From a virus, in UHGV virus genome UHGV-0191544: 43,161 nucleotides of DNA; one strand, 5' to 3'. Under the pieces are notes generated by a model that was not told the origin of the DNA, did no database searches, and saw nothing but the letters and a program-made list of their open reading frames with translations. The translations under genes were made by a program, and so were the position numbers. Below, one piece after another: positions 794 to 41,099 of the stretch (positions within the stretch are counted from its first letter, which is position 1; the number at the start of each line of letters is the position of its first letter).

Positions 794-808
794 TGGTGTC
801 CCCTGCAG
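794..808. repeat. att core, left copy (TGGTGTCCCCTGCAG), identical to the tRNA 3' end
   Basis: Exact 15-bp match to 41025..41039; flanks diverge immediately. Confidence 0.65.
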
Positions 809-867
809 ACATCTACTTGACGCGGCAGGGGATTGATTAGAATGGTGTTTTTTAGATGTGAGAAATA

Positions 868-887
868 TTTTACCCGCTATTTTACCC
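868..887. promoter_or_regulatory. Two TTTTACCC motifs beside the att core; candidate recombinase/RDF arm sites
   Basis: Same 8-mer (as GGGTAAAA) recurs at the integrase start 40865..40909; approx coordinates. Confidence 0.35.
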
Positions 888-1082
888 ATTGGCGCGGCTT
901 AAGAGCTTATTTTTGAATTCACAATGATCACGATATAACCATCTTGCTCGCCCGTGGATAACTTTGGCTTTTGGCAGGTCGCCGGACTTAATCCGGTCAT
1001 AGATGAAGGTTTTACCGAAGCCAGTATCGGCCATGATGAATTTCAAATCAACCAGGGAATCAGGTTGTAGTTCGTGTTGCAT
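882..1082 (-). CDS. torI: Excisionase / recombination directionality factor, TorI (KplE1) type, 66 aa
   Basis: 66-aa translation matches TorI as recalled (MQHELQPDSLVDLKF...); AlpA-like small HTH protein at prophage end. Confidence 0.8.
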   Translation of the reverse strand: MQHELQPDSLVDLKFIMADTGFGKTFIYDRIKSGDLPKAKVIHGRARWLYRDHCEFKNKLLSRANG

Positions 1083-1101
1083 GAGTGCTATCTCCGAATA
1101 G

Positions 1102-1117
1102 GGAATCGAACCTGCAA
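1102..1117. repeat. 16-bp fragment identical to the T-arm segment of the tRNA (GGAATCGAACCTGCAA), displaced about 290 bp inside the prophage
   Basis: Exact match to 41039..41054; surrounding sequence cannot fold as a tRNA. Confidence 0.5.
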
Positions 1118-1318
1118 ATCAGGTAATAAAAAACCGCCATCAGGTGGCTTGGTGTTCTTTCAGTTCTTCAATTCGAATATTGGTTACGTCTGCATGCGCT
1201 ATCTGCGCCCATATCATCCAGTGGTCGTAGCAGTCGTTGATGTTCTCCGCTTCGATAACTCTGTTGAATGGTTCTCCATTCCATTCACCTGTTACTCGGA
1301 AGTGCATTTATCATCTCC

Positions 1319-1345
1319 ATAAAACAAAACTCGCCGTAGCGAGTT
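1319..1345 (-). terminator. Intrinsic terminator candidate downstream of the last early-left gene
   Basis: 7-bp stem AACTCGC/GCGAGTT with 4-nt loop, followed by T-rich tract on minus strand; approx coordinates. Confidence 0.45.
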
Positions 1346-1364
1346 CAGATAAAAGAAATCCGCA

Positions 1365-2165
1365 TTAAGCGGCGTCGGTGAATTCAAATAAAAAACCGGC
1401 TTGCGCCGGCTCTCTCATCTTTCTGTCTACCCATGCTGATATCGATGGCGGGTGCACCTTTTCAATAGCAGCGCGAAGTACAGCTGTACGTGCCAGTTTG
1501 TCAGTAATCTCAGGAAATCGCTTCTCTGTCTTCGGTACGTTAACAGCAACATTAGTAGAATCCGCACTGGCGAACGGATACATACCAAGAACTCTCACGT
1601 CGAGCATTCGAAGACCATGAATTTTCACTTTCAAATTACGATTGATATAAAGCTCAGTGAAAACTTCATCCATTCTCTGTTCCCACCATTTAGAGCGTAT
1701 GTGCCTGTGTGGGCCGCAGCATCCAATCGCCACCCATTCAAATTTGCCAGAAAGGCGTAAAAGACGTTCAATTGATTCGTCGGTATGCCAGACCGGAACC
1801 GCTTTTGATTTTAGCCAATCAGGAACCAACTCAATCTGCTCGTCGTTTTCTGCCTCTGTCCCTTCGATAACGTCAGGTATAAGAAACCATTCAATTCTGC
1901 TGAACCACTTCCCAACAAAGTCGTAGAATTTTGCTCGCCTCTTACTCCAGTCTACCGGAGTGCCTTTCTTTAATGCTTTCATCCAGTCGCTAAAAGCACC
2001 GTTATCAAGGCGTATATCACAAGGGAACATGGCAATCTTTTTCATCTGCTCTGGTCTGGCAAATGAAACAAAAGCCCCACCATCACGGTAAAGGGCTTTA
2101 ATCAGCATATCTGTAGGGGCATGCTCATCACCCCATATTGGGCTGCCGTGAAAGTGGATGGTCAT
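1365..2165 (-). CDS. Hypothetical 266-aa protein, last gene of early-left operon; possible TGT/DpdA-like transglycosylase fold (speculative)
   Basis: Long ORF; motifs in TGT-like order (RLDNGAF, IPDVIEG, VAIGCCG, IHGLRMLD); no zinc CxCxxC..H motif seen. Confidence 0.3.
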   Translation of the reverse strand: MTIHFHGSPIWGDEHAPTDMLIKALYRDGGAFVSFARPEQMKKIAMFPCDIRLDNGAFSDWMKALKKGTPVDWSKRRAKFYDFVGKWFSRIEWFLIPDVIEGTEAENDEQIELVPDWLKSKAVPVWHTDESIERLLRLSGKFEWVAIGCCGPHRHIRSKWWEQRMDEVFTELYINRNLKVKIHGLRMLDVRVLGMYPFASADSTNVAVNVPKTEKRFPEITDKLARTAVLRAAIEKVHPPSISAWVDRKMREPAQAGFLFEFTDAA

Positions 2166-2484
2166 ATTATCCCCATATAAAAGAAATCCCCGCGAGTGCG
2201 AGGATTGTTATTCATTGCCGATATTCACCTTTATCGCGAACACCTTTACCGGTTTATCACCGAAGTGCGGATGTGTGATTGTCTTGATTTCATATCCGTC
2301 ATACGGAACATCAATTCTGCGGCTGGAATCGTCGCGCTTCGGATATCCCTTTGTGATAATCAGTCGGTCATACTACCGGAACATAATTCGCTTATTCCAG
2401 TAGTCATTACACAGGCGATACTCTTCCGTTTTATCTCCGCGAATCATGGCATCGAAGTATTCACCTTTGACGGCAAGTTGCAGG

Positions 2485-2772
2485 TTAGCCACGACCTTCC
2501 TCCTTGGGCTTGTGAATTTGTATCGTCATGCCGCTTTGAGTGGTGACTACAATGACAGAACCAGGCTGAAGGCTGTTAAGATTGAATGCTTCGTAAAACG
2601 AATCCAATGCCAGTGCTTTTTTATTCTTTCGGTTCCACCAACGCCATCCATTGCTACAGGCTACACTGACAATCCACTGTCCACTCCTGTAAGCCATATA
2701 AAACCAGATGAGCAAAACCTGAATGAATGCTATCCAGTCAATAATCGTATATTTCGCGAAGGAGTCCATCAC
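2485..2772 (-). CDS. Hypothetical protein, 95 aa, hydrophobic N-terminus
   Basis: ORF in operon orientation, stop overlaps next gene. Confidence 0.4.
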   Translation of the reverse strand: MMDSFAKYTIIDWIAFIQVLLIWFYMAYRSGQWIVSVACSNGWRWWNRKNKKALALDSFYEAFNLNSLQPGSVIVVTTQSGMTIQIHKPKEEGRG

Positions 2773-3674
2773 TTCACCTCCTGCGGCGGTTCCGGTAGCG
2801 GCATCCAGTGGGTTACACCGTCAATTGGCTCATCGTCGTCGTACTCCAATGCGGCTATATAGAACCCGTCACGACGAGAATAAGAAATCCCTGACATTAC
2901 AATGCCATCCGAAACAACAATAATGTCACCCGTTTCTTCCGGCATTCGCTCACTACAGCTTATCCAACCATCCGGAGTTACCGGAACTTGCGGAATGGCT
3001 GTCTGCTCTCGAACGTCATTAGGCGCTATAGGTTCTGCTGCCAACTGACTGGCATATTTGTTAATGGTAACGAAAAGCTCTTGCTCAGCCTCATCCAGAC
3101 AATCACCGATACCTCGCCTGTCACCGTCAAAATCATCGAAATCGGCACGAATCTTGGCAACCTTCAAGATTGCGGACAACACCTCACTAGGAATTACCGG
3201 ATAGTTGGTTGACGTTTCCGCGATTTCCCGAAAATTATTGGTTGACGAATTCTTGCTTTCCCGAAAGTTTCCGGACTGAAGCATGGCGGTGCGGCAGGCG
3301 TTCCATATTTCGGCAGCAATATCGCGCTCGCTATCGGTTAATTTGTACGTGGAAACATAGCCAGAGAGCATTTCTACGTTTTCCGGAGTTGCTTCTTCCG
3401 GCACTACCGGCGCTGGCGGGGAGATGCGTCCAAGCAACTTATTTACCTCTTTCGCCATCGCGTCATATTTATCTAAATGGCGATTAGCTTCTAAGCAGAC
3501 TCGGCGCATCTGATCTGAGTTAACTCGTTTAACTGGATCTGCTTCCAGCGATGCCAGCGCAATTCGTGCCAGTTCTTCCGCTTCTTCTGCTGGCAGTACA
3601 ACGTTGCTACCAGGTCCGTATGTTTCGCGCCACTGCTTGATTGTCAGCAGTTGCTCTTTGGTTATAGTGGTCAT
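2769..3674 (-). CDS. DUF551-type prophage protein, 301 aa
   Basis: C-terminal region shares motif (THWMPLP) with ORF 21679..21897; typical ea-region protein. Confidence 0.55.
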   Translation of the reverse strand: MTTITKEQLLTIKQWRETYGPGSNVVLPAEEAEELARIALASLEADPVKRVNSDQMRRVCLEANRHLDKYDAMAKEVNKLLGRISPPAPVVPEEATPENVEMLSGYVSTYKLTDSERDIAAEIWNACRTAMLQSGNFRESKNSSTNNFREIAETSTNYPVIPSEVLSAILKVAKIRADFDDFDGDRRGIGDCLDEAEQELFVTINKYASQLAAEPIAPNDVREQTAIPQVPVTPDGWISCSERMPEETGDIIVVSDGIVMSGISYSRRDGFYIAALEYDDDEPIDGVTHWMPLPEPPQEVK

Positions 3675-3675
3675 A

Positions 3676-4170
3676 TCACTCTCCTTTGATGCGAATGCCA
3701 GTGGTACTCATTCTCCTGATTTCCCAGAGCACACGAGGAATACCACCGTTTCCGACCGGATCGCGTTTACTCCGCAGGGCGACGCTTGATTCCGCCCAGC
3801 TTTTTCTTGGAGGAAGCTCTTTCACACGAACAAAACCAGCTGCGCGAAGAGATGCTCCTGATTCATCTGCCTGGGTGTACGTAATACAACGTTGATAACC
3901 CATAGCTTTTGCTGCCCGCCAGACAGCACCATAAAGCGCGCTGTTAGCGTTGCGTTCTCCTGTGGTACATGTGCGATTTACTTCAAGCGTTAATCCATCG
4001 TCCAAATGTCGTGCAACAGGTCGACCAGCTGTCGCCACACCTATCAATTCTCCGGCATTATTTCTCAGACCAATGCTGAATTTATGCCCCACTGGTGGTT
4101 TATTGTGTCGGTGGTGCTGTGCGATAAATTCCTGCGCCGCTTTCAGCGTTATAGGTGAAATGACCATCAC
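3676..4170 (-). CDS. Hypothetical protein, 164 aa
   Basis: ORF start overlaps upstream gene stop (ATGA); no family recognised. Confidence 0.55.
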   Translation of the reverse strand: MMVISPITLKAAQEFIAQHHRHNKPPVGHKFSIGLRNNAGELIGVATAGRPVARHLDDGLTLEVNRTCTTGERNANSALYGAVWRAAKAMGYQRCITYTQADESGASLRAAGFVRVKELPPRKSWAESSVALRSKRDPVGNGGIPRVLWEIRRMSTTGIRIKGE

Positions 4171-4706
4171 TCAGACTCCTCCTTGATGCCAGCGTCGCTT
4201 GCTGATTCTTCATATGCGCGTTTAGCAGCGTTAAGGATTGCTGCCAGTGGCGTATAGCCGCCATCCATTCGGATTGTGTTGTGGATGCCAGCCATTGTGT
4301 CGCGCAATTTGCTGTGGCTAGCAGACAGTTCTGCAATGCGCTTCTCTGCGGCTTCCAGCTCAACGCGCAGCCTCCCAACCGTAAGCGCAATATCCTCGCT
4401 CTCCTGGTCGCGGCGTTTTATGTATTGCTGGTTTCTTTCCCGTTCATCCAGCAGTGCAAGCACGGTAGCCGGATTGGCTGCAGCGATGAATTCAGCATTG
4501 GCCTGCTGTTCCATTTGGAAATCTTCATCGAAACCGCTTTCAGGATGTGCTCCTTCAATTCTGCAAATGGGAAGATATCCAGCAGCCTCGCGATGAATTA
4601 GTGCATCATCACCATCAAATCGTCCCTCTCCATATTCGAGCGACCACTCACCACACGTTGCTTTTTCTGCCTTGGCACGCAGTGCCTGATAGTCAATCTT
4701 GCTCAT
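4167..4706 (-). CDS. Ead/Ea22-like protein, 179 aa
   Basis: Conserved N-terminal block (CGEWSLEYGEGRFDGDD) plus coiled-coil tail, typical of Ea22-like proteins. Confidence 0.5.
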   Translation of the reverse strand: MSKIDYQALRAKAEKATCGEWSLEYGEGRFDGDDALIHREAAGYLPICRIEGAHPESGFDEDFQMEQQANAEFIAAANPATVLALLDERERNQQYIKRRDQESEDIALTVGRLRVELEAAEKRIAELSASHSKLRDTMAGIHNTIRMDGGYTPLAAILNAAKRAYEESASDAGIKEESE

Positions 4707-4826
4707 GTCACATCACCCTGAATCCGTTGCATTTACGTAAAAAATCGCAGATATAGCCCTTCATTTTTTCGTGCCAATCTCGATCATTCCCATTGCACCA
4801 ACCATCAGGTGGAGTCCAGTTTTCTA

Positions 4827-5006
4827 TCAAGCAGCCATTTTCTTTGCTTTCGCCGGAGTAGCTGTTGCGGTATCGCAGTAATGACGAGTGTCAACCAACG
4901 CATCCATACCATCGATATCAAGTACGCAAAACCATGTGTGATTCGGAATTCCTACAGGTGGTATTTGTTGCCCACGTCGACGTTTATCAATAAGATATAC
5001 ACTCAC
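4827..5006 (-). CDS. Small hypothetical protein, about 59 aa, GTG start after AGGAGG
   Basis: Strong SD AGGAGG 6 nt upstream of in-frame GTG inside track ORF 4827..5027. Confidence 0.3.
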
Positions 5007-5166
5007 TGCTTGCCTCCTTTGCGCCACATCGCATTCAGATATTTGTTTTGATTCACTGATGGAAAAGAATTTCTCTTAAGCAATTCCTCTCTCGATGGCA
5101 TTGGCTTTACGCGTTGGCGAATAATCATTTCTGCCGGAAGAATGCCGGGATTGTATGCAAGTCCTC

Positions 5167-5448
5167 TCATGATTTACTCTCCACGAACTGGTCAATAGCC
5201 ATGCTAAGTGACATACCTAAAGTTTCGATATGCTGCTGAATATCCTGTAGCGTCTGCGCCTGAGATAACAGGATTTCACGGTTACATAACTCTTTAACCA
5301 GATGCTCAAACTTGCTGTAATAACCGATACGGCTTAGTGTTTCTTTCCCTGCATTCTCACCTTCTTTGATAATTCCTCTTTCACTAAGAATCAGGTCGTG
5401 TTTGGTTCCTGTAATAACATATTTGCCTAGGTCTATGTTTAGCTTCAT
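5167..5448 (-). CDS. Hypothetical protein, 93 aa
   Basis: ORF in operon orientation. Confidence 0.45.
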
Positions 5449-5464
5449 TGTTAATTACTCCATG

Positions 5465-5779
5465 TTAATTTATTCGTATGCCTGCTCTTTCTTCATCGAG
5501 TTTTTTTAGCTTGTATCTCATAGCTCTTACTGAATAAATTGAGCGGCAGGTTGCAATTGCTATTTCTTCTGCGGAGAACTTACCGAAAAGTGATACTTCG
5601 GCTCTTGTCCAGCGTCTTCCACGAAGTCGGCTAACAATGTCAGCTCCAATCCTTGTTGCTTTCGCCATTACTGCTTTTTCAGTCCTTTCCAGTTTTTCAG
5701 CGATAACTTCAACTGGCATTGTCGCCGCCACTTCGCGCAAGAAATCGACTTCCCATTTCTCCCATGGAGTCTTTTTCAT
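5465..5779 (-). CDS. Hypothetical protein, 104 aa, possible DNA-binding
   Basis: ORF in operon orientation; basic helical segments. Confidence 0.45.
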   Translation of the reverse strand: MKKTPWEKWEVDFLREVAATMPVEVIAEKLERTEKAVMAKATRIGADIVSRLRGRRWTRAEVSLFGKFSAEEIAIATCRSIYSVRAMRYKLKKLDEERAGIRIN

Positions 5780-5790
5780 AGGCGATACCG

Positions 5791-6279
5791 TTATTTGATA
5801 AGAAGTGAAGGTTTCCCAACTTTGAGTTGAGCGCCGGGGATATTTATTCCTGCTTTTAGTTGGTGTTTGATTGCCAGTTTGTCGGCTTTAATTGTCGTTT
5901 CAAATTCAACGTATTCAGGAGGAAGGGCGCTTGAGTCGATGATTTCTACAGTTTCTGACGGTTTGCGGATTGTTACCTGGTGAATACCTGCTCGAATCTT
6001 TTTCTTGCCAACCATTTCAAGCGATGACGCTATATACGCCATAATGCTGTCAATCTTATTTTGAATTACTGCGGCTCTCTCATTTAGTGACTTTGCCTCT
6101 TCCTTGAGGCGTTCAGCATAACCAGATTCATTTTTAATAATGGCGAGAAGTTGCTCTATTTTATCGGTAAATTCTCCTTCCATGCCTTCTATTGTGTCAG
6201 CAATCATCTCTGGCTCTAAATCTGAATCCATCAGCTTTGCGTATTCATTGGCTATTTCATACAGTTTGCTCACTGGCAA
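5791..6279 (-). CDS. Gp157-family protein, 162 aa, RecT-associated
   Basis: Size, coiled-coil character and position immediately downstream of recT. Confidence 0.45.
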   Translation of the reverse strand: MPVSKLYEIANEYAKLMDSDLEPEMIADTIEGMEGEFTDKIEQLLAIIKNESGYAERLKEEAKSLNERAAVIQNKIDSIMAYIASSLEMVGKKKIRAGIHQVTIRKPSETVEIIDSSALPPEYVEFETTIKADKLAIKHQLKAGINIPGAQLKVGKPSLLIK

Positions 6280-7159
6280 CCTCCAGTTTCGCTTTGCATT
6301 CTATGTAAATGGCTTGTACGTTCTGCTGCAATTTCATTCCAGATGTCAGGCGATATGCTTCTGCAAAATATCGCTTCAAATCATCCATGTTTTCTGCCTG
6401 AGCCATTTCATCGCAAAGAAGTTGTGCTTTATCCATTATTTCCTGCTGGCGTTTCCGTTCATCTTCGCGGATATCTTCCTCTGATTTGTGCGGCATAACT
6501 GGTTCCTGATGCACACCTTCATCTTCGTTAAGCAGGTGAATGGCATTATCCAGTCGCTGGGCTTTAGGCCAGTATTTGCTGGCGCGTTTAACTATTGTTT
6601 TACGCGCCATCTCTTCCCAGAATGTTTTCCACGGTCCATTCTTTGCCTTGCTCGTTGCTTCCACAGCTTTAATTTCTGCCAGACTCATTTCTTCAGTCAG
6701 GTAGTCACCATCTGCTGTTTTAACCGTGCAATAACCTCCAACAATAGAGCCTCGCTCACCAAATGCGTTGTATTTGTGGGTTGGTGCTGAATCAAGGCCA
6801 TTTGATTCATAGGTGTCGTTTGAGTACACCAGTTTGCATTGCCCCCACTTAATTGATCCTGTCGATTGCGCAAGATGAAGTAATCCCATGTAACTGATAT
6901 CAAGGCACACCATGCCGTCGCGAGGAACCAGATAAGCCAGTTTGCTGGCCGGGTTTAAGGTGATGCCGATCGCCGCAACATTGATGATGGCGTTCTGTGC
7001 GCTGGTTGGATTTGCCAGTGCTGTTTTAGCCAGGTAATCGTTTTTCTGGAAATACTGAATTGCAAACTGGCTTTCCTTAGCCCATGTCACCGTCTGTTCA
7101 GTCAATGCTCCGCAGAATAACTGCTCTTGCTGTTTAACGAATTCAACGATATTGCTCAT
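6257..7159 (-). CDS. recT: RecT-family single-strand annealing recombinase
   Basis: Motif GPWKTFWEEMARKT matches RecT signature GPWxTHWEEMAKKT; size about 300 aa. Confidence 0.8.
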   Translation of the reverse strand: MSNIVEFVKQQEQLFCGALTEQTVTWAKESQFAIQYFQKNDYLAKTALANPTSAQNAIINVAAIGITLNPASKLAYLVPRDGMVCLDISYMGLLHLAQSTGSIKWGQCKLVYSNDTYESNGLDSAPTHKYNAFGERGSIVGGYCTVKTADGDYLTEEMSLAEIKAVEATSKAKNGPWKTFWEEMARKTIVKRASKYWPKAQRLDNAIHLLNEDEGVHQEPVMPHKSEEDIREDERKRQQEIMDKAQLLCDEMAQAENMDDLKRYFAEAYRLTSGMKLQQNVQAIYIECKAKLEVASEQTV

Positions 7160-7467
7160 GCAGCTTCTCCATAAATATGTCTGCGTTTGAATATTGCGAA
7201 GGCATATTCAGCCTTAACTCTTTCGGTTATTGCATCCCAGAACCATTCAGCGGCTTTTTCCTGATAGTTACAGTCATCATCTTCCAGCCAGTCGATAGCG
7301 TCCTTAGTGTGTTCATCTGGTTTATATGATCGAAGCATTTCGCTTATTGGGTCGCAACGTTTGCAGAGGCGATCAACTTCACTGTTGATTCGTTCGTAAT
7401 CATCATCGGTAAAACTTGCGATGATTTGCGATATTTCACGCTTATCATTCAGAGTCAGAATCATCAT
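7156..7467 (-). CDS. Hypothetical acidic protein, 103 aa, immediately upstream of recT
   Basis: ORF overlaps recT start. Confidence 0.45.
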   Translation of the reverse strand: MMILTLNDKREISQIIASFTDDDYERINSEVDRLCKRCDPISEMLRSYKPDEHTKDAIDWLEDDDCNYQEKAAEWFWDAITERVKAEYAFAIFKRRHIYGEAA

Positions 7468-7548
7468 CTTTCTCCTGTTCTTTGTGCTGATTGAGCATTT
7501 CTTTCATCTGACGAATGAATTCTTCGTCTGACCAGTTATCTGTAAAAC

Positions 7549-7701
7549 TCATTTCCTGCGATACCACGGAAGGTTGATAGCTGATTTCATCGCTTTATTT
7601 GCTTCAAGCCACATTTTGGAATCACCAATAAATCTGGCTATTACTGCTTTGTTCTGTGCAGCACGAAGCATCTGGTGATTAATGGCTATTTCATTGCGCA
7701 T
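7549..7701 (-). CDS. kil: Kil-like host-killing protein, 50 aa
   Basis: Hand-translated MRNEIAINHQMLRAAQNKAVIARFIGDSKMW...; IATFIGDEKM-like motif recalled for lambda Kil; overlaps cIII stop. Confidence 0.45.
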   Translation of the reverse strand: MRNEIAINHQMLRAAQNKAVIARFIGDSKMWLEANKAMKSAINLPWYRRK

Positions 7702-7820
7702 AACGCCTCCAGTTGTTTCTTTGCTGCTCTGATTAATTGTTTAACTCGGCGCGATAATTCAGATTCGTGCGGGTAGAAAGCGGACATGACGCCGCTACCC
7801 GCGAGCTGAAAGTGCATCAT
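7686..7820 (-). CDS. cIII: CIII-like protein, 44 aa
   Basis: Hand-translated MMHFQLAGSGVMSAFYPHESELSRRVKQLIRAAKKQLEAL; resembles lambda CIII helix; GGAG SD. Confidence 0.55.
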   Translation of the reverse strand: MMHFQLAGSGVMSAFYPHESELSRRVKQLIRAAKKQLEALCAMK

Positions 7821-7903
7821 GGGTAACTCCTTATATTTGATTGCATAACGAAAACGCCTCAAGTGAAGCGTTATTGGTATGCGGTAAAGCCGCGCTCAGG
7901 CGG

Positions 7904-8152
7904 CTACTCTATTTCTTCTTCGAATGATTTTATTAGTCGGTCAATAACATCATCTGTTTCAATATCATTTCCGTCTGATTGCTTTAATACGTCTATTGAT
8001 TCTGCGGCGGTAAATTCCATCGCTGTGAGAAACTCGACAATTGCACACTCAACGACATATCGTTCTTCATCTGTACGGCATGATATAAAAGAGCATTTAA
8101 TTGCTGTTATTACTTTTTGTTTAAGTTCTGCAGGATAATCAGTTTTTATCAT
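7904..8152 (-). CDS. Small acidic protein, 82 aa
   Basis: ORF immediately downstream of intrinsic terminator; rich in Asp/Glu. Confidence 0.5.
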   Translation of the reverse strand: MIKTDYPAELKQKVITAIKCSFISCRTDEERYVVECAIVEFLTAMEFTAAESIDVLKQSDGNDIETDDVIDRLIKSFEEEIE

Positions 8153-8165
8153 CGTTCACTCTGTC

Positions 8166-8191
8166 AAAAAAACGCCCTCACATCGGAGGGC
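8166..8191 (-). terminator. Intrinsic terminator inside the early-left operon (tL1-like)
   Basis: Minus strand GCCCTC-CGATGT-GAGGGC followed by seven T; approx coordinates. Confidence 0.6.
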
Positions 8192-8325
8192 AAAGAAGAT
8201 TTCCAACAATCAGAACAAGTCGGCTCCTGTTTAGTTACGAGCGACATTGCTCCGTGTATTCACTCGTTGGAATGAATACACAGTGCAGTGTTTATTCTGT
8301 TGTTTATGCCAAAAATAAAGGCCGA

Positions 8326-8964
8326 CTATGCGGCCTCGGAAGGAAGTCCAATCATCTTATTCAAATCCTCTACCCGTAAAGCAGGAAGTGCTGTACTTGC
8401 TTTATCTGCTTCTTTTGGTAGCAATTCTTTGCTTTCAGGCCAAACTTCAATGAGTCGCTTAACTGTTGTGACTGAGTTTAAAGCAGCCCATACATTTGAT
8501 TCGATATCCTTTTTCTTGGCTTCAAGTTTTTGTTGTAATGCGCAGATTTCATCAAACCTTTTTGTTATTTCGTGCTCTGCGTCAAACATGCATTTATCTT
8601 TTATCGGAGTAGGGAGAAATATATCTTCGCCGTTGCCGTCTTTCCCATATGAATGCCATCCAACCCTTCTGCCAGATACAGTCAGATAAATTGAAGTAGA
8701 ACGAAAATCGTATGAGTAAAATGAACATCCCATCTTTCCAAGTTCTTCACTTATAGCTACCAACTTGGATGATAACTGTTCCACTTCCTCAGTTTTCTTT
8801 TTACCGCCAAACGCAATAACTCTGGCGTCAAGTGCAAGCTGGTTCTTTAACTTTGTTACTTCTTCAAGCTCAGTGAAAACCCCAGACTTAATTAAAGCGT
8901 TACGAGCGATTTCCTCTTTCATTCTCGTAGTTAAGCGGATTGATGACATATTAATTCCTCTCAA
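8326..8964 (-). CDS. Hypothetical protein, 212 aa (possibly starting at internal Met, about 207 aa)
   Basis: ORF between N and first terminator; no family recognised. Confidence 0.5.
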   Translation of the reverse strand: MRGINMSSIRLTTRMKEEIARNALIKSGVFTELEEVTKLKNQLALDARVIAFGGKKKTEEVEQLSSKLVAISEELGKMGCSFYSYDFRSTSIYLTVSGRRVGWHSYGKDGNGEDIFLPTPIKDKCMFDAEHEITKRFDEICALQQKLEAKKKDIESNVWAALNSVTTVKRLIEVWPESKELLPKEADKASTALPALRVEDLNKMIGLPSEAA

Positions 8965-8985
8965 ATAAGAAAATAAAGGCCACCA

Positions 8986-9186: not shown

Positions 9187-9264
9187 ACGGATAGTCCTGG
9201 TATTGTTCCATCACATCCTGAGGATGCTCTTCGAACTCTTCAGATTCTTCTTCCATATCTCACC

Positions 9265-9564
9265 TCAAATAAGTGGTTTGCTGCCTAATTTAATTTTCTG
9301 GCGACCAACACAAGTCACCCCCATTTCACTGCGTGGCTTGCGGTAGTAAATACGGTTCTGTTTACGCTCGACTTCATCTGCCTTCTTGCAGAGAAGGCTT
9401 CCGAGTGATGCTACTTTGTCTGCTCTGACGCAACCAGAGAGCTTTAGCGCAATTTTTCGCGCCAGTCGCTGCTCTTGCATCGCCTGTTCACGTTGAGCCT
9501 GTCTGCGTGCTCTGCGGCGATTTCTGGCGTTATCGTCAGCCAGATATGTAATGACTACTGTCAT
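9265..9564 (-). CDS. N: N-type transcription antiterminator
   Basis: N-terminal arginine-rich motif NARNRRRARRQAQREQA; first gene after PL/nutL. Confidence 0.7.
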   Translation of the reverse strand: MTVVITYLADDNARNRRRARRQAQREQAMQEQRLARKIALKLSGCVRADKVASLGSLLCKKADEVERKQNRIYYRKPRSEMGVTCVGRQKIKLGSKPLI

Positions 9565-10007: not shown

Positions 10008-10054
10008 TGCCAATCTGTTCCGTTTGGCTTCCAGCGTCCTGCTGATGGCTAAAG

Positions 10055-10139: not shown

Positions 10140-10225
10140 TATTTTTTCGGTGTCTGCTTGTTCAGTGCTTTTTATGCGGGATATGTGAAGTGGATCCCGA
10201 TAGCTATTGCTGCCGGGATTATAGG

Positions 10226-20876: not shown

Positions 20877-21395
20877 ATGAATCATCAATTGGCTAATCTC
20901 GATTTCCGGGACATGGTGGTTGTTTCTGGTGATCGCGTGATCACAACCTCCCGCAAGGTAGCAGCTTACTTCGACAAGCAGCATCACCACATCATTCAGA
21001 AAATCGAAAAGCTAGACTGTTCGGATGAATTTCTAACCAGCAACTTTTCGCGGGTTACCTATGAACACAAGGGTAATCAGTATGTTGAATATGAAATTTC
21101 CAAAGACGGCGAGATGTACATCATCATGTCGTTTACCGGCAAAAAAGCTGCCGCCATCAAAGAGGCGTTTATCAAAGCATTTAATTGGATGCGTGACAGG
21201 CTGATGGAGATGGCTCACTCATACCAAAGAGAGCACAACGAGTTAATGCTGGAGTTCATGAAGGAAAAGGATGTTGCCAGTATGTCAGGACGCTTGCTGA
21301 ACCGCTGGGGCAGGATCAAAAAACCGCAACTCATAGCAAGAATCGAAAGGCTTGAGCAGCAGGCGCAAATATCGATCCCCGGACTGCCAAAGTGA
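20877..21395 (+). CDS. rha: Rha-family phage regulatory protein
   Basis: Internal ATG at 20877 (AAAAGG SD) of track ORF 20634..21395; Rha-like N-terminus. Confidence 0.65.
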   Translation: MNHQLANLDFRDMVVVSGDRVITTSRKVAAYFDKQHHHIIQKIEKLDCSDEFLTSNFSRVTYEHKGNQYVEYEISKDGEMYIIMSFTGKKAAAIKEAFIKAFNWMRDRLMEMAHSYQREHNELMLEFMKEKDVASMSGRLLNRWGRIKKPQLIARIERLEQQAQISIPGLPK

Positions 21396-32440: not shown

Positions 32441-32442
32441 CC

Positions 32443-33138
32443 ATGTTATATGCATTTAAGCTGGGCAGAAAACTGCGCGGCGAGGAACCTTATTGCCCTG
32501 AAAAAGGCGGGAAAGGTGGCAGTTCTGATAAAAGCGCAAAGTATGCCGCAGAAGCTCAGAAGTATGCCGCAGACCTGCAAAATAAACAGTGGCAGACGAT
32601 CATGAAAAACCTTGCTCGGTTCACGCCGCTTGCGGAGCAGTATGTTAACCAGCTTCAGAATCTTTCCAGTTTAGAAGGACAGGGGCAGGCACTTAATCAG
32701 TATTACAACTCTCAGCAGTATAAAGACCTTGCAGGTCAGGCGCGTTACCAGAGTCTTGCTGCTGCGGAGGCGACGGGAGGACTTGGCTCGACAGCCACAA
32801 GCAATCAACTGGCCACGATTGCCCCGACTCTCGGTCAGTCGTGGTTGTCGAACCAGATGAGCAACTACAACAATCTGGCAAACATTGGCCTTGGTGCGCT
32901 GCAAGGTCAGGCGAACGCCGGGCAGACATACGCCAACAACATGAGCAGCATTGCGCAGCAAAGCGCAGCTCTTGCCGCTGCTAATGCCAATAAACCATCA
33001 GGCCTTCAGACAGCAATTAGCGGCGGAGCTTCAGGGGCTATGACTGGCGCTGCTCTTGGCTCTATTGTTCCCGGGCTTGGCACTGGATTAGGTGCGGCAA
33101 TTGGCGGCGGACTTGGCCTGCTTGGCTCGTTGTTTTAA
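32443..33138 (+). CDS. Ejection protein (P22 gp7-like)
   Basis: 231 aa; Gly/Ala-rich C-terminus; position. Confidence 0.7.
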   Translation: MLYAFKLGRKLRGEEPYCPEKGGKGGSSDKSAKYAAEAQKYAADLQNKQWQTIMKNLARFTPLAEQYVNQLQNLSSLEGQGQALNQYYNSQQYKDLAGQARYQSLAAAEATGGLGSTATSNQLATIAPTLGQSWLSNQMSNYNNLANIGLGALQGQANAGQTYANNMSSIAQQSAALAAANANKPSGLQTAISGGASGAMTGAALGSIVPGLGTGLGAAIGGGLGLLGSLF

Positions 33139-33147
33139 GGGGTAATC

Positions 33148-34536
33148 ATGGCTACTTGGCAAGGATCAAATGGCGGATTGTTGGCTGGTATCGGCGGTGT
33201 CAACTCAAACGCTCCGAGCGTAAATGACATCGGCAATACGCTTCAGCTTATCAGGCAGAACAATGATATTGAGCGTTCAGGCGCTAACAATGTTGGGCTG
33301 ACTGCTTTGCAAGGCCTTTCAGGTATTGCGGGGGTGTTTCAGCAGGAAAAGCAGGCTCAGCGGCAGAAAGAATTTCAGCAGGCATACGCTAATGCTTATG
33401 CGTCTGGTGATCGCGGTGCTTTGCGTCAGTTGGCTACTCAATATCCAGACCAGATTGAATCCGTTCGTAAAGGCATGGGATTCATTGATGAAGACCAGCG
33501 CAATTCTATCGGCACCTTAGCGGCTGGCGCTCGTCTTGCGGCATCGTCTCCAGAAGCAATGCAATCATGGCTGCAAAACAACGCCAAGGAACTGACTCGC
33601 GTCGGTGTTGACCCTAACAACGTTGCTCAGATGTATCAGCAGAATCCTTCAGGATTTGGTGAGTTTGTTGATCACCTTGGGATGGCTGCGCTTGGTCCGA
33701 TTGATTACTTCAATGTTCAGGACAAGATGGCTGGTCGTGAGATTGATCGCGGAAAACTTGCAGAGACAATCCGCAGCAATCAGGCTGGCGAGGCGCTAAC
33801 AGCACGAGGCCAGAACATCACGATGCGCGGTCAGGACTTATCTGCTTCTACTGCGCGACGCGGGCAGGATTTGGCAATGCAGCGAGCGTCAACAAGAGGA
33901 ACCGCTGGGAATGATGAGCGTACAGTTCAGTTATCAGATGGCAGAACTGTAACGGTAGGCGGGAAACTTCACGGCGCTGGGGCTAATGCGTTCTACGAAG
34001 GCATCGACAACGAGGGGAATATGGTTCGCGTTCCTGCCAGTTCAATCGCAGCGCCTGCAACATCGTCTGCATCAGCACAAAACTATGCCATGAAGAAGGA
34101 TATCGACGCGATCGCAAATGCAGACGCTTCTGCTCTCGATTTCATGACAGGAATGACAGGCGGTGCAGGTAATCCAGCAATTGGTGCTGATGTTCGCAGC
34201 CGATTAACAGGAAAAGAGCAGCGCCAGTTATATAACTCAGCACAACGTATTCAGGGCAGAATGCAGAATCAGGGTGTGGCGGCAGCAAGGGACATGGGTG
34301 CCAGTGGTATTAACACCGTTGCAGAAGCGAAGATGTATTTTCAGGGGATGCCGCAGGTTGACTATTCAAGCCCGGAGGCTATGCAGCAGTCGATTCGTGA
34401 GATTCAGGAATACACCAACAATTACAACCAACAATATAACGTTAATGTTGGTAAATCTCAGCGGCAGCAATCTCAACCTGCACAGGTATCACAGCCAGCA
34501 GCCAGCAGTAACTTTTCTTCACTATGGGGTGATTAA
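33148..34536 (+). CDS. Ejection protein (P22 gp20-like)
   Basis: 462 aa; position. Confidence 0.7.
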
Positions 34537-36533
34537 TGGCTAAAGCATGGAAAGATGTTATCGCCTCTCCACAGTATCAGGCGTTAGCACCAGAACAAAA
34601 AGCGCAGGCTCAGGAGCAATACTTCAATGAAGTCGTGGCCCCGCAAGCCGGAGAAAATGCAGAGCAGGCTAAGCAAGCTTTCTATGCTGCCTATCCATTG
34701 CCATCTGTGCAGCAAGTGGAGACACAGCAACCAGTAGCACAGCAACAACCACAGCAAAGTGGATTTATGTCTGATCTTGGCGAAGCAGTAAAAGAGACTG
34801 GTCGCGGACTGGTGCAGGCTGGCGTGAACGTGGCAAACATACCTGCATCAGTTGCCGATGCTGTAACAAGCGCGGCGGCTTGGGCTGGCGGTAAACTCGG
34901 TATTGGCGATGGTACATATCAACCAGCACCACGAGTAACAACGCAGGGATTAGAGCAGGACTTTGGCCTTCAGCAAGGTGCGCTGACTCCACAAACGACA
35001 GAGGGAAGGGTATTTGCTGAAGCATTGCCTTACCTCACTCCTGTTGGCATTGAGAGAGCGGCGGTACAGGCACCAACACTTGCTGGTCGAATTGCTCAGG
35101 GGGCAACTCGCCTTCTCGCAGAAAACGCAGTTGGATCACTTGCTGCAAACAGTATGAAAGATGATGCGGAAGCACTCGCTACCGATTTAGGTGTTGGCGT
35201 TCTGGCAGGCGGCGCTATTAACGCTGCTGGACGTGGATTAGGTGCTGCTTATCGTGGCGTTCGCGGTGCTATTGCGCCAGAAGCGCAGCAAGCTATCAGA
35301 TTTGCAGAGCGTGAAGGAGTTCCTCTGCACACCACAGACCTGTTACAACCCACTTCCCGCGTCGGAAAAATGGCGCAGACTACAGCAGAAAATATCCCCC
35401 TGGCTGGCACAAGCGGAATGAGAGCAACACAACAGGAAGCGAGAAGCCAGTTGGTACAGAGATTTGCCGATAAATTCGGTGAGTATGATCCAGCGGTTGT
35501 TATTGACAGCCTTAAAGCGAAAACATCAGGAATTCGTCGTGCTGCCGGTAATCGACTGGAGCAGGTTCAGAATGCTATGGCTGGAGTAAACATTCAGCCT
35601 GTGCGAGCAATTCAGCAGATTGATACTGAGATATCTAACCTGCAGAAGCTTGGTAAGGTCGCTGATAACGAGACGATTTCAAAACTTCAATCCTATCGTG
35701 ATGAGCTTATTCGCAATGCTGGTCCTGATGGTCCGGTAAATCTGGATTTGAAGCAATTAAGCGATCTGCGTAGCCAGTTCAGAATGGACGTAAAGGGGGA
35801 ACGACCAGTGTTACCAAACCGTTCCGATGCTGCCATTCAGCGCGTTTACAAGGCGATGACAGACGATATCAATGGTGCCATTGGTCAGAATCTTGGCAAT
35901 GATACTCTCCGTAAATATCAGCAGGCCAATGCCGTCTACGCTGACGAAGCGGCGAAACTAAAGAATACCAGGCTGAAGAATGTTCTCATGAAAGGCGACC
36001 TGACACCGGAAGTTGTCAACAACATGCTATTCAGCAAGAACAAATCGGAAATTAAGACGCTGTATAACTCAGTTGGTCGTGTTGGCAGGGCGCAAATGCG
36101 CAATGGCATCATTGGAAAGGCGATGGAGAAATCTGGCGGATCCCCTGACCAGTTCCTTCGACAGCTTAACATCCTGCAAAACCAGACTGGCATCACATTT
36201 AAGGGGCAGGACGCTGCATATCTGAAAGGATTGAAAAACTACCTGCAATCCACGCAGCAGGCTGCAAAAGCGGCAGTAACAACACCAACAGGGCAGCAAA
36301 CCATCCCGTTCATTATCGGATATGGGACAGCAATGAACCCTGCGACAACTGGCGCAGCGGTAAGCTACGGACTTCTTACTCGCGCCTATGAGAGCGAGCC
36401 ATTCAGAAATGCAATGCTCCGAATGGCAAACACCCCACGCGGATCAACAGCCTTTGAGAAAGCAATGCAGCAGGCACAAAAGGCAATTAACGCTATGACG
36501 CAGGGGGCTAAGTCTGATGCGTTGTCAGAATAG
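34536..36533 (+). CDS. Ejection protein (P22 gp16-like)
   Basis: 665 aa; position. Confidence 0.7.
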   Translation: MAKAWKDVIASPQYQALAPEQKAQAQEQYFNEVVAPQAGENAEQAKQAFYAAYPLPSVQQVETQQPVAQQQPQQSGFMSDLGEAVKETGRGLVQAGVNVANIPASVADAVTSAAAWAGGKLGIGDGTYQPAPRVTTQGLEQDFGLQQGALTPQTTEGRVFAEALPYLTPVGIERAAVQAPTLAGRIAQGATRLLAENAVGSLAANSMKDDAEALATDLGVGVLAGGAINAAGRGLGAAYRGVRGAIAPEAQQAIRFAEREGVPLHTTDLLQPTSRVGKMAQTTAENIPLAGTSGMRATQQEARSQLVQRFADKFGEYDPAVVIDSLKAKTSGIRRAAGNRLEQVQNAMAGVNIQPVRAIQQIDTEISNLQKLGKVADNETISKLQSYRDELIRNAGPDGPVNLDLKQLSDLRSQFRMDVKGERPVLPNRSDAAIQRVYKAMTDDINGAIGQNLGNDTLRKYQQANAVYADEAAKLKNTRLKNVLMKGDLTPEVVNNMLFSKNKSEIKTLYNSVGRVGRAQMRNGIIGKAMEKSGGSPDQFLRQLNILQNQTGITFKGQDAAYLKGLKNYLQSTQQAAKAAVTTPTGQQTIPFIIGYGTAMNPATTGAAVSYGLLTRAYESEPFRNAMLRMANTPRGSTAFEKAMQQAQKAINAMTQGAKSDALSE

Positions 36534-36623
36534 CTTTTCAAACACCAGGAACGTGCAAAAACCAAATATGTAGAACGCGAGGTTTATCGTATCCCTCTGC
36601 ATAGGCGATACCTTTGCTGATTG

Positions 36624-37109
36624 TTATCTGATGTTACTGCTACTGTTGCATGTGACTGTATTTCCAAACCCTGAATTGCAGTTTGTGTAAGTGTCAACTC
36701 GTGTTGGATAGGGTTGAGTTATAACAGGCTGTCTCGCTTTTTGCTCGATCGCTTGCATTGTGTTTACAGCCTGATAATTCAATAAAGCCTGCTGGAATGC
36801 TTGGCTTTGTGCTATTTGTTGGGCTTGTTCTTGGCTTTGTAATTGAACATAAAGATTCTGAAGCTCAAGTCTTGCCTGTGCGTCACTTATCTTGCCTTCA
36901 TCGACACCTTGCCCGAGCATCTTTGCAGCAAGGACATACAGCTTAGGTGTTGGTGCTGATGCCATGCGTGAGTCGTTCTTCACACTGGCATCAAGGCAAT
37001 TAGCCATATCGCTAAGCTTTTGATAGCGTTGTTCGCAACTTGCTTGATAGTCACTTACTTTTGCGCATCCAACCAGCAGAAGCGGGATAATTAACAGTGA
37101 TTTTTTCAT
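36624..37109 (-). CDS. Lipoprotein with Gln-rich coiled-coil region, in the immI/sieA position
   Basis: Internal Met gives MKKSLLIIPLLLVGC signal peptide with lipobox; SD GGAGAG; opposite strand to late operon. Confidence 0.6.
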   Translation of the reverse strand: MKKSLLIIPLLLVGCAKVSDYQASCEQRYQKLSDMANCLDASVKNDSRMASAPTPKLYVLAAKMLGQGVDEGKISDAQARLELQNLYVQLQSQEQAQQIAQSQAFQQALLNYQAVNTMQAIEQKARQPVITQPYPTRVDTYTNCNSGFGNTVTCNSSSNIR

Positions 37110-37179
37110 ATGGTTAACTCTCCTTAGTTTTTCACAGGATAGCATGAAGGCAATGCCATTTTAGCCGGAAACTAGATTT

Positions 37180-37446
37180 CTATGTTTCCTTTTTATTATT
37201 GCTATACATGGTCTTAAGCGTTTCAAATACCATTTTCTTAACCATATCAGATTGTTGTTCTGCCATACGCTCTGCATCATCAATGTAAACGGATGCAGAG
37301 CTTTGTTTAGCCAACGATTCTTCAATCGCTGCAATTATCTCTGAGTTCAGCGATCTGTTATTCATCTTCGCACGCTGCTTAATTTTCGCGTGGAGTTCAT
37401 GCGGAAGTCTCAAGTGAAACTGCGCCTCATCGTATTTGCTGTACAT
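37180..37446 (-). CDS. mnt: Mnt-like ribbon-helix-helix repressor
   Basis: Matches P22 Mnt as recalled (NGRSMNSEL..., NDAERLADEQSELVKKMVFDTLK). Confidence 0.8.
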   Translation of the reverse strand: MYSKYDEAQFHLRLPHELHAKIKQRAKMNNRSLNSEIIAAIEESLAKQSSASVYIDDAERMAEQQSDMVKKMVFETLKTMYSNNKKET

Positions 37447-37567
37447 CCTTGATGCCTCACCAGTTGGGTGGAATTGCATCGTAACCTACTGGATAAATAC
37501 TCAATAGTACCATTTCGGTATGCAATCACATCATGGTTGCATCATATCATTCGTCTGGAGCAATGAA

Positions 37568-39640
37568 ATGTCAGATATCACCGCAAATGTTGTGGTAAGC
37601 ATGCCTTCGCAACTCTTCACTATGGCTCGTTCTTTTAAAGCGGTTGCCAATGGAAAAATTTATATCGGTAAAATTGACACTGACCCGGTAAATCCTGAAA
37701 ACCAGATTCAGGTTTATGTGGAGAACGAAGACGGTTCTCACGTTCCTGTTTCGCAACCAATAATCATTAACGCTGCTGGTTACCCTGTATATAACGGACA
37801 GATTGCCAAATTCGTAACTGTGAAAGCCCATTCTATGGCTGTTTATGATGCGTATGGTGCACGGCAGTTTTATTTTGGAAATATCATCCAATATGATGCA
37901 AAGCAAATCCTTGCTATTTTGTCTGGAGATATCGGTGCAACTTTTGTCGGGTGGAGAAAAAGAAAGTTAAACGACATACTTGATTCAATCTCTATAAGAT
38001 CTGATGACTTTCTTACTCTTCATGATTGGGCGGCTTATCCTGCTAAGCATAAAATTCTTGCTGGAGGAAATTACAATTTATCTTCAAGGCTGGAGATTGA
38101 TTGTGAGACATTATCTGTTGAAGGCGTAGCAAATATAAATGTAGGTGATTCATTTGTTGCTATGTATTTTGGTACAAATCAGCGAGATTTACTAACCACT
38201 ATTAGCTCTAATATTTCAAAAGGAATAACCAGTCTCACTGTTGATAATGTTCAGGAAGGAGATACTTTATGCTTTTATAATCCTTCAGATTTTTCATGGT
38301 CTGGACACAGGAATTATTATCGTGGCGGAGAGTTTGTTAAGGTGGTTAGGTATTCGAATGGGATTGCGTACTTCAATGGAGGGACAAAAGCCGCATACCC
38401 ATCCGGAACTCAAGTTTATAAGCTAAAAACAAAAAAAGTTTCTGTAAATGGGACTTTTGTATTTAATTTTCCTTCATACCACAAAAACGCCATGGCCATG
38501 CAATTCGAGCAGGTAGCTGATGGTAACTTTGACAATCTCGTCGTCACATCTCACACTGCGCCTTATGCCGTTCAGTTTAAACGTTGTTTCAATCTTGCTG
38601 GCAAGGGAATGCGTATCACACAGGAGTCTCCTTCTGTAAGTTTTGGCTTAGAATATGCCTGCTATATCTGCAATAGCCAGAATATTGATTTTGAAGGTAT
38701 ATTTTGTGCGGAGCGCCACTCAGTCACTGTGACTGGTAATGATGAAATTTGCGGTATTGTTAACCGATTTATTAGTGTTAACGCCAGCGGCGGCGCAATC
38801 ATGACTACTGGACAGGGTGGGGTGGCGGCAGCAGACTGGCACGGAAACACCGAAAAGTGTAGGTATGGTGGATATATTCAGGGGCTTGCTTGTGGAGGCT
38901 CTAAAAATAGCGCATATGGCGCTCATATCGACCACATACCGAACACTCCGGCATGGCCGAACATACTTGCTACGGAACTTAAATCAATAGAGTTTGATTT
39001 AAGCAATATCCATGTTACCGGGATAGGCGATCCGTCTTCAGTAAGCAGAGGCTGTATTGATTTTGGGGGTAACTCTACTGCATTCGGAACTAATACCGTT
39101 GATCCTGGAACGCTGAACCTTTCAGGGGCCGTTATTGATTCTCCTGCAAGCGTGTTGATTGAGATAAGAAACAGGGGGTCAGTAGCTGCGCACACCATAA
39201 ATCTTAATGGAGTTACCGCCAATGCAGAGAGCGGTAAGCACACAGTCAGGATTGCGCCGGTTGGGGAAGTTGGTATTTCTCCTTCAGATGTTTACATGGC
39301 AGGGTTTAAGATGCCTGCCGGTAGTATCTCACAGATAAACAACATGTCATCAGTAAACGTACATGGAGTTGATTTAACAGGAACCGCAACGGCTACTATA
39401 CCTGCAGGTAGCTTTTCTGTTGAGGTAACTATACCTTTCCCATCGAGTATATTAGGGGTGCCAAAGCATATCGGCTTCGGGTTAACAGGATTAATACCCC
39501 CAACGCAGAGACGGGTTGTTCTCTCAAAAAGAAATGCAACAGCAAATCAATTCCGTGTAATTGTCGCGTTGGCAACTACTGATGCAGAGCTAACGTCTGA
39601 TCTGAGTGTGGACTTCACATATCATGTATCATGGCGCTAA
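37568..39640 (+). CDS. Tailspike (P22 gp9-like head-binding domain, divergent receptor-binding domain)
   Basis: N-terminal about 115 aa matches P22 gp9 ([34 protein letters not shown]...); rest unrelated. Confidence 0.9.
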
Positions 39641-39709
39641 CATTATTTGAAAAAATATCGAAAAGCACCTCAACGCCTGTGAAGCCGATGAGAGGTTTTT
39701 CACGACCCA

Positions 39710-40864
39710 TCATATCTTTTCATCAAGCCAATCCGCCCACCACTGCATCATTTCTCTGCGCTTATCGAGATACTGAGCATGGTTGTAAATTCCACGCACA
39801 GAACCGCCGTTGGCATGTGCTAGTTGCACTTCAATAGCATCGGCGGGCCATTCGTGCTCGTTCATAATCGTGCTGAATTCATGCCTGAATCCGTGACCGC
39901 TTTCCAGACCCTCATAGCCAATTTGTTTGATCACAAGCAATACCGCGTTCTCGCAGATTGGCTTCTTCTTATCGTTGCGTCCGGCAAAAACAAACTCTGA
40001 TACTGGTTTAGTGATTGAGCTTAGCGTAGTGAGAAGTTCAACCACCTGGTCTGACATCGGGACCACATGAATTTTGCGTCCCTTCATCACACTGGCGTCG
40101 ATGGTGATAATCCTGTTTTCAAAATCGACGTTCTTCCATTGCATGGAGCGAAGCTCTTTCGTTCTGAGGGCTGTGTAGCGTAAAACTTTGGTCGCAATGA
40201 GCGATACGATGCTTCCTGAAAATGTTGCCAGTGCTTTGTTAAATGCCGGGATCTGGTCTGCAGGAAGAAACGGGAAGTTCTTCTTGCGGTATCCCTTCAT
40301 GGCGTCAGCAAGGTCAGGTGCCGGGTTATATTTAGCCCTGCCGGTGACAATAGCGTAACGGAAAACCTCGCCGCATCTTCTGCGTGCTTTGTTGGCTCGC
40401 TCCATTGCACCGCGATCTTCGAATCTGCGGATTACTTCCAGCAGTTGCATCGGCTCAATATCCTGAATCTCAAGACCGCCGATGATGGGTAAAATGTCGT
40501 CATCAAACATTTTGGCAAGTTCAGTCGCATATCCTACTGACCAGACTTGCTTCTTGTGCTCGTACCATTCCTTGTAAATGGCGCTAAAGGAATTGTTGTT
40601 AGACGAAGCCTTTTTCGCTTTTACCGGATCGATGCCAACCGAGATGTCTTTCCTCGCGGTCCATGCTTTATCTCTTGCCTCCTGCAAAGTCATTAGCGGA
40701 TATTTTCCTACGGTCAGGATTTTCTCCTTACCGTCAATCTTGTAGCGAAGCTGCCATACCTTTTTCCCGGATACAGGGACATAAAGGTACAGGCCATTAC
40801 CATCGAGAAGGCGGTATGGTTTTTCTTTCGGCTTTGCTGCTTCAATCTGCTTAACGGTGAGCAT
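39710..40864 (-). CDS. intS: Tyrosine integrase, P4/IntS type
   Basis: N-terminus LTVKQIEAAKPKEKPYRLLDGNGLYLYV typical of P4-family integrases; adjacent to tRNA; likely ATG at 40864. Confidence 0.9.
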   Translation of the reverse strand: MLTVKQIEAAKPKEKPYRLLDGNGLYLYVPVSGKKVWQLRYKIDGKEKILTVGKYPLMTLQEARDKAWTARKDISVGIDPVKAKKASSNNNSFSAIYKEWYEHKKQVWSVGYATELAKMFDDDILPIIGGLEIQDIEPMQLLEVIRRFEDRGAMERANKARRRCGEVFRYAIVTGRAKYNPAPDLADAMKGYRKKNFPFLPADQIPAFNKALATFSGSIVSLIATKVLRYTALRTKELRSMQWKNVDFENRIITIDASVMKGRKIHVVPMSDQVVELLTTLSSITKPVSEFVFAGRNDKKKPICENAVLLVIKQIGYEGLESGHGFRHEFSTIMNEHEWPADAIEVQLAHANGGSVRGIYNHAQYLDKRREMMQWWADWLDEKI

Positions 40865-40909
40865 GGGTAAAAATCCGGTGGGTAAAATTATTTTATCCAC
40901 TTTTTACCC
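40865..40909. promoter_or_regulatory. GGGTAAAA motif cluster (two direct, one inverted) at the integrase start; candidate arm sites
   Basis: Same 8-mer as at 868..887; approx coordinates. Confidence 0.35.
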
Positions 40910-41024
40910 GTCACGGAGTGCGGCTGTCAACGATCTGACGCGAACCATTACGAACTGTGAATCTGCGGAAGGCTTGATATTCAGGGAATTTTGCGGACTG
41001 GTACGGATGGGAGCGAACTGATAA

Positions 41025-41039
41025 ATGGTGTCCCCTGCA
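41025..41039. repeat. att core, right copy, forming the 3' end of the tRNA
   Basis: Exact 15-bp match to 794..808. Confidence 0.65.
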
Positions 41040-41099
41040 GGAATCGAACCTGCAATTAGCCCTTAGGAGGGGCTCGTTATATCCATTTAACTAAGAGGA
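41025..41099 (-). tRNA. argW: tRNA-Arg (anticodon CCU)
   Basis: Reverse complement reads GTCCTCTTAGTTAAATGGATATAACGAGCCCCTCCTAAGGGCTAATTGCAGGTTCGATTCCTGCAGGGGACACCA. Confidence 0.9.

Follow-up and report, generated by a model that had tools for sequence, protein, structure and literature searches.

The viral DNA catalogued as UHGV-0191544 (43,161 nucleotides, the whole of which is referred to here as the window) contains a 40.2-kb P22-like prophage bounded by two copies of the 15-bp core TGGTGTCCCCTGCAG, with the tyrosine integrase gene intS beside the argW tRNA gene at one end and torI, which encodes a recombination directionality factor (RDF), at the other (Table 1). It is very probably an apparently complete P22-like (Lederbergvirus) prophage, inserted in the 3′ end of argW by the IntS/TorI module of the Escherichia coli K-12 element KplE1/CPS-53 and of phages HK620 and Sf6. 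A preliminary description of this DNA had given a span of 794-41099, which brackets the prophage plus its tRNA, and had reported only 15 bp of exact identity between the two ends; the direct repeat does end there, because base 793 is C and base 41025 is A. The core occurs exactly twice in the window, even with two mismatches allowed, where 0.06 occurrences would be expected. Its length is 15 bp here and 16 bp in K-12 because the bacterial flank is cscB-type, not dsdC-type; a 17-bp repeat has been reported for the argW-integrating phage Kapi1. To the right of argW, yfdC and mlaA follow in the K-12 order. Judged by these sequences, the integration target is the 3′ end of argW, used through the CTGCAGGGGACACCA(T) core.

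The two recombination proteins are close to, or the same as, those of the characterised systems. IntS has 382 residues identical to K-12 IntS, 379 to HK620 Int and 381 to Sf6 gp16, and carries the Pfam domains Arm-DNA-bind_3, Phage_int_M and Phage_integrase, so that the N-terminal arm-binding domain is present; its start is the ATG at 40864, and the GTG at 40900 that opens the longest reading frame is not the true one. TorI is identical at 66 of 66 positions to K-12 TorI, HK620 HkaC and Sf6 gp18 (100% identity with HkaC and P18 had already been published) and matches the solved structure of TorI, a winged-helix RDF (PDB 1Z4H, E=6.6e-43). In PHROGs it falls into phrog_66, excisionase and transcriptional regulator; it has no family match in Pfam or NCBIfam and was identified by PHROGs and PDB alone. 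The preliminary naming of an IntS-like integrase by the tRNA and of TorI at the far end is borne out by these identities. The C terminus of the integrase reads ...DEKI (384 aa, 39710-39715), while K-12 and HK620 have ...DEKVE and Sf6 ...DEKVR (385 aa). From this difference the window and its relatives diverge downstream, suggesting that a mosaic joint lies right at the end of int.

The junctions expected on excision, which the preliminary description proposed to check by polymerase chain reaction, were rebuilt in silico in its place. Joining 40780-41040 to 809-1200 gave the predicted attP, of which a 543-nt version was used for the genome search, and joining 300-808 to 41041-41550 gave a 1019-bp attB. 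Both match sequences that exist, the first in known phages and the second at empty sites. No gap is needed to align the rebuilt attP with those of HK620 and Sf6, and the 543-nt version is colinear over 100% of its length, at 96.7-97.6% identity, with the complete genomes of HK620, Sf6, HF4s, Louie, Dewey, CurroJimenez, N7, IME10, HK633 and HZ41. Many E. coli chromosomes contain the attB as a single, 100% identical stretch, and it is at least 80% covered in one place in 1414 of 5426 genomes; these are empty argW sites in which no torI remains.

The 5′ end of int faces the core, PintS lies inside the arm and attP lies between the RDF gene and int. The placing of attP in the circular phage between torI and int, deduced in the preliminary description, is the order int, attP, torI homologue of HK620 and Sf6. 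The HK620 GenBank record annotates int, three 'attP' repeat regions, an 'attP core' and hkaC, and in that of Sf6 the attP core is flanked by gene 16 (int) and gene 18. The contrast drawn with P22 stands as well: there gtrA is followed by the attP core (21300-21322), which is unrelated, and then by int and xis side by side, whereas torI and int lie on opposite sides of the core here and do not form a lambda/P22-type int-xis cassette. None of this is a new inference, since the IntS/TorI argW module with int and the RDF gene at opposite ends is already known. The arrangement was described by Panis et al. (2010, 2012) and Pick et al. (2022), the Kapi1 paper placed attP between int and xis and hence the two genes at opposite prophage ends, and int and an RDF gene flanking attP appear in GenBank records or papers from 2001 to 2022 for HK620, Sf6, KplE1, CUS-3 and Kapi1. 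The recombination module has been stated to be 'highly conserved' in HK620, Sf6, CUS-3 and other argW phages and prophages.

Table 1 Features of the prophage, its recombination module and the host flanks (window positions)
Feature	Position	Strand	Remarks
Bacterial left flank	1-793		end of cscB-type oligosaccharide MFS transporter gene
Core copy, torI-side junction (attR in Panis nomenclature)	794-808		15 bp, TGGTGTCCCCTGCAG
Phage-specific DNA	809-41025		40,217 bp
IHF-like AATCAATCCCCTG, candidate	826-838	-	one mismatch from WATCAANNNNTTR
P-arm repeat GGGTAAAA, inferred IntS arm-type site	868-875	-	inside active attR substrate
Second P-arm repeat GGGTAAAA, inferred IntS arm-type site	880-887	-	overlaps torI stop codon
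torI, RDF, 66 aa	882-1082	-	stop codon 882-884
T-loop-like box TTGCAGGTTCGATTCC	1102-1117	-	identical to argW 41040-41055
Intrinsic-terminator-like hairpin and T-run upstream of torI	1128-1150	-	weakened by A.C mismatch
intS, tyrosine integrase, 384 aa	39710-40864	-	382/384 to K-12 IntS
P'4	40865-40872	+	abuts int ATG
P'3	40880-40887	+	
P'2, degenerate copy GGATAAAA	40891-40898	-	
P'1	40902-40909	-	overlaps -10 box of PintS
PintS promoter	40901-40930	-	-35 TTGACA 40925-40930; -10 TAAAAA 40901-40906, overlaps P'1
TorI site I5	40930-40937	-	
TorI site I4	40940-40947	-	
TorI site I3	40950-40957	-	
TorI site I2	40993-41000	-	
TorI site I1	41013-41020	-	
Core copy, int-side junction (attL)	41026-41040		15 bp, equal to argW 3′ end
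argW, tRNA-Arg(CCT)	41026-41100	-	ARAGORN, sole tRNA found; 75/75 identical to K-12 argW
yfdC	41176-42108	-	right of tRNA
mlaA	42402-43157	+	right of tRNA
Predicted attP junction sequence			...GAGCGAACTGATAAATGGTGTCCCCTGCAGACATCTACTTGA...
Predicted attB junction sequence			...GGGTATCTGGTGTCCCCTGCAGGAATCGAACC...

A second exact direct repeat links the same two ends. It reads GGAATCGAACCTGCAA 19 nt upstream of the torI ATG, and its argW copy, in the T arm, abuts the core. Were this 16-mer (TTGCAGGTTCGATTCC, at 1102-1117 and 41040-41055) the real core, torI and the two TTTTACCC repeats would lie outside the mobile element. The CUS-3 record (CP000711.1) in effect draws the boundary in this way, labelling the 16-mer 'attL core' and 'attR core' (at L007 893-908 and L008 1-16), ending before torI and leaving that gene out. 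We nevertheless give this placement almost no credence: complete phage genomes hold torI and the P arm between the 16-mer and the 15-bp core, the empty argW sites have no torI, the attR substrate used in vitro stops at window position 905 and still recombines with the 16-mer excluded, and in diverged relatives the flanks of the element are not tRNA sequence. Because phage genomes, empty sites and in vitro substrates all indicate CTGCAGGGGACACCA, the CUS-3 core placement conflicts with them; the real core of that prophage is probably the adjacent CTGCAGGGGACACCA, so that about 300 bp, the RDF gene among them, are probably missing from its record. In IMG/VR, the torI stop codon is the exact end point of dozens of prophage contigs (L016, L017, L020 and many more); automated boundary calls there remove the P arm and core.

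With the 15-bp repeat as core, the control elements of the int-side arm can be read against those mapped in K-12. Panis et al. (PMC2951348) described four IntS arm-type sites upstream of intS, P'1-P'4, all with TAAA and mutated in K-12; P'1 and the -10 box of the mapped promoter PintS overlap. In the interval from the core to the -35 box they placed five TorI sites, with the motifs GTTCG, GTCCG and GATCG, I1 and I2 being spaced 12 nt apart and I3 to I5 2 nt. The TorI sites of the window match these in sequence, spacing and position (a 2+3 arrangement of CAGTTCGC-type sites), and its PintS has the same sequence as the K-12 promoter, which was mapped by primer extension. A generic sigma-70 scan, whose tool demands a T at the end of the -10 box, did not recover this mapped promoter, in which that box reads TAAAAA. 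The comparison with K-12 attL and attR, proposed in the preliminary description, shows P'1-P'4, the -35 and -10 boxes, I1-I5, the core and both P repeats to be base-for-base identical within arms that agree at 96% overall. Since the mapped sites are those of K-12 and the TorI motifs are of the GTTCG type, TorI, by analogy with K-12, does not bind the 8-mer repeats discussed below, and its five sites are all on the int-side arm.

Six copies of the 8-mer GGGTAAAA are present in the window, where 0.93 would be expected, and none of 100 shuffles reached six. All five copies listed beforehand, at the int start (40865-40909) and on the torI side (868-887), are present. The int-side tally of three is correct as far as it goes (P'1, P'3 and P'4) and missed the degenerate P'2, which makes four P' sites; the reading of these repeats as arm-type sites is upheld on that side by their coincidence with the experimentally defined IntS sites of K-12. 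On the torI side, the same motif leads us to read the pair of repeats as putative arm-type sites. Both lie inside the 135-bp attR fragment, with an inner primer equivalent to window 886-905, that together with a 220-bp attL suffices for in vitro excision. Alternatively, the repeats might serve as TorI sites or promoter elements, or be A/T-rich repeats that arose by chance, seeing that one copy overlaps the -10 box and another lies inside the int coding sequence. We regard this as very improbable in view of the excess of copies, the GTTCG-type motifs that Panis et al. assign to TorI as against the TAAA shared by the IntS sites, the arm-binding domain of Int and, in the Salmonella phage Emek lineage, the co-variation of the two arms: where the window has GGGTAAAA, that lineage has GGGCATAA/GGGCATAT on both. 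Such a concerted change is expected if the repeats are IntS arm-type sites, because a single domain would read both arms. The sixth exact copy, within int (40487-40494, plus strand, I-L-P codons), may be a chance occurrence or an extra Int site; the HK620 record marks the same intragenic spot as an 'attP' repeat.

More diverged relatives, the Klebsiella phages Chronis and RCIP0114, the Erwinia phages Midgardsormr38 and EhrS_49 and phage Emek, keep the order of elements at 69-78% nucleotide identity. Their CGAAC pentamers hold their positions, spaced with a 10-bp period, and the -35 box does not vary from TTGACA. The exact IHF consensus WATCAANNNNTTR was found in neither arm, and the candidate site is the near match AATCAATCCCCTG. 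The core segment CCCCTGC (800-806) recurs inverted as GCAGGGG (825-831), 18 bp into the P arm, where it overlaps this IHF-like sequence, and the combined block is kept in nearly all of the diverged relatives.

The 16-mer upstream of torI, though not the core, appears to be an element in its own right. RDF loci were collected from IMG/VR and reduced to 31 representatives below 85% identity; a related-locus scan with the RDF alignment gave 100%-identical TorI loci alone, and the diversity was supplied by scans seeded with the RDFs of Emek and Midgardsormr38. A box with the core GTTCGATT(C/T)CC precedes the RDF start in 26 of the 31 representatives, at exactly 29 nt from the start codon in 20 of the 26, while the four Erwinia representatives have it at 26 nt, three of them with a tandem duplicate. 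The sequence 5′ of the box is unconserved, and what is specific to the E. coli lineage is limited to six extra matching bases. The fixed distance to the start codon, together with unrelated 5′ flanks, suggests a conserved functional cis element, and the 16-nt extension that matches the argW T arm in E. coli phages would explain how att cores came to be labelled here in CUS-3. Tentatively, the box could be an operator, so far unrecognised, by which TorI acts on the expression of torI or on the assembly of the intasome. TorI comes to mind as the binder because the box contains its pentamer GTTCG, and IntS as an alternative because the box resembles the attB-side core half-site ATTCC/TGCAGGG, near the putative overlap region (ATTCC/TGCAGGG/GACAC). 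That the 16-mer is a relic of a longer tRNA identity split by the insertion of torI is unlikely, since relatives keep GTTCGATTYCC alone, at a fixed distance. The cII site annotated here in HK620 was likewise set aside: its TTAC-N5-TTGC spacing is unconserved in relatives. Folding of the box leader was not clearly better than that of shuffled sequences (z = -0.85 and -1.86).

In KplE1, IntS recombines at the core, TorI is required for excision and IHF assists. We propose that the module of this prophage works as follows. In the circular phage the order is the pL operon, torI, the two P arm sites, the 15-16-bp core, the five TorI sites, PintS with its -35 and -10 boxes overlapping the four P' sites, and then int, all in a single direction of transcription. 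Integration at the core splits this unit, leaving torI at one prophage end and int at the other. In the lysogen, by sequence identity with the KplE1 system, IntS would be made from PintS at a low level because it represses its own promoter through P'1 over the -10 box. Since the genes from the N-like gene to torI are all on the minus strand, torI would be the last gene of the leftward early operon, and on induction N-antiterminated leftward transcription could pass the hairpins at 1390-1415, 1327-1346 and 1128-1150 to reach it. TorI would then bind I1-I5 cooperatively on the int-side arm, repressing PintS as well through I4 and I5, and excision would be carried out by TorI, IntS on arm and core sites, and IHF, after which torI, attP and int would again be colinear. 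TorI-dependent excision and repression of PintS by TorI and IntS are thus what identity with the characterised system would predict here.

The remainder of the element is that of a P22-like phage. Pfam identifies P22_portal, P22_CoatProtein, a tailspike with the P22 Head_binding domain, Repressor_Mnt and an S24/HTH cI repressor, and PHROGs an N-like antiterminator (9265-9564, minus strand), Cro-like and CII-like proteins, RecT and a P22-type DNA transfer protein (phrog_770), so that portal, coat, tailspike head-binding domain, ejection proteins and immI (mnt), which mark the Lederbergvirus type, are all represented. The early half gives mosaic matches to HK620, Sf6, Kapi1 and HK140 at 95-97%, and in the structural half the matches are to IME10 (95%) and, at about 80%, to Salmonella P22-like phages. 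The prophage might instead be a defective remnant like KplE1, whose module no longer moves a viable phage: the K-12 copy of the module does sit on a remnant of 10 kb, and the terminator hairpin is mutated here. A remnant is nonetheless improbable, given a length of 40.2 kb that is typical of P22-like phages, intact genes for terminase, portal, coat, ejection proteins, tailspike, cI, N, Cro and CII, and structural and early regions that are 95-97% identical to isolated phages.

KplE1 shares with the window the argW target, both proteins, all mapped sites, PintS and the opposite-ends arrangement, and differs in being a 10.2-kb remnant with gtr-like genes and no repressor, whereas the element studied here is a full prophage. 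HK620 and Sf6 share the int, attP, hkaC/gp18 layout at about 97% nucleotide identity as well as early-region mosaics; their tailspike is different, as are parts of the early region, and the structural genes of the window are closer to IME10 and to the P22-type Salmonella phages. Kapi1 and CUS-3, both argW-integrating and P22-like, have the same att site and module. With P22 itself the element shares the portal, coat, tailspike head-binding domain, mnt and lambdoid regulation. The modules of P4, P2 and 186, as published descriptions have it, resemble that of the window in an int promoter that overlaps an att arm, in negative autoregulation of int and in the uncoupled transcription of int and RDF genes, while their proteins and sites are different.

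Some further features of the element lie outside this comparison of modules. Between the tailspike gene (37520-39640) and the end of int there are only about 70 bp (39641-39709), where Sf6 has oac; O-antigen-modification genes (gtr, oac) are absent from the window, unlike P22, Sf6 and KplE1. The tailspike has only its head-binding domain in common with known families. Two genes upstream of torI, a 266-aa protein (1365-2165, minus strand) matches phrog_887, 'queuine tRNA-ribosyltransferase' (E=1.4e-102), and is a possible DpdA-like enzyme; such enzymes have been linked to the 7-deazaguanine modification of phage DNA.

A few points weigh against reading the element as an apparently complete prophage with the KplE1-type module. 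The C terminus of IntS is slightly different, ...DEKI in place of ...DEKVE. The torI-side repeats are assigned to IntS from motif identity, covariation and inclusion in an active attR, and the activity of the module in this particular prophage is predicted from identity with the characterised one. In addition, the hairpin upstream of torI has an energy of -7.6 kcal/mol here and of -13.0 in HK620, Sf6 and most IMG/VR relatives, and this weakening might raise, or otherwise alter, basal read-through into torI.

For this prophage the analysis provides base-exact boundaries, with phage DNA at 809-41025 flanked by the 15-bp core, assigns torI to the prophage and extends to its module the regulatory logic of a well-studied system. 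More generally, and as already published, int and the RDF gene can occupy opposite ends of a prophage, and the RDF is then lost to any boundary caller that goes no further than the last gene or settles on the wrong repeat. For the window itself there is little import beyond correct annotation, and the box upstream of the RDF gene is the sole item that is possibly worth a small experiment.

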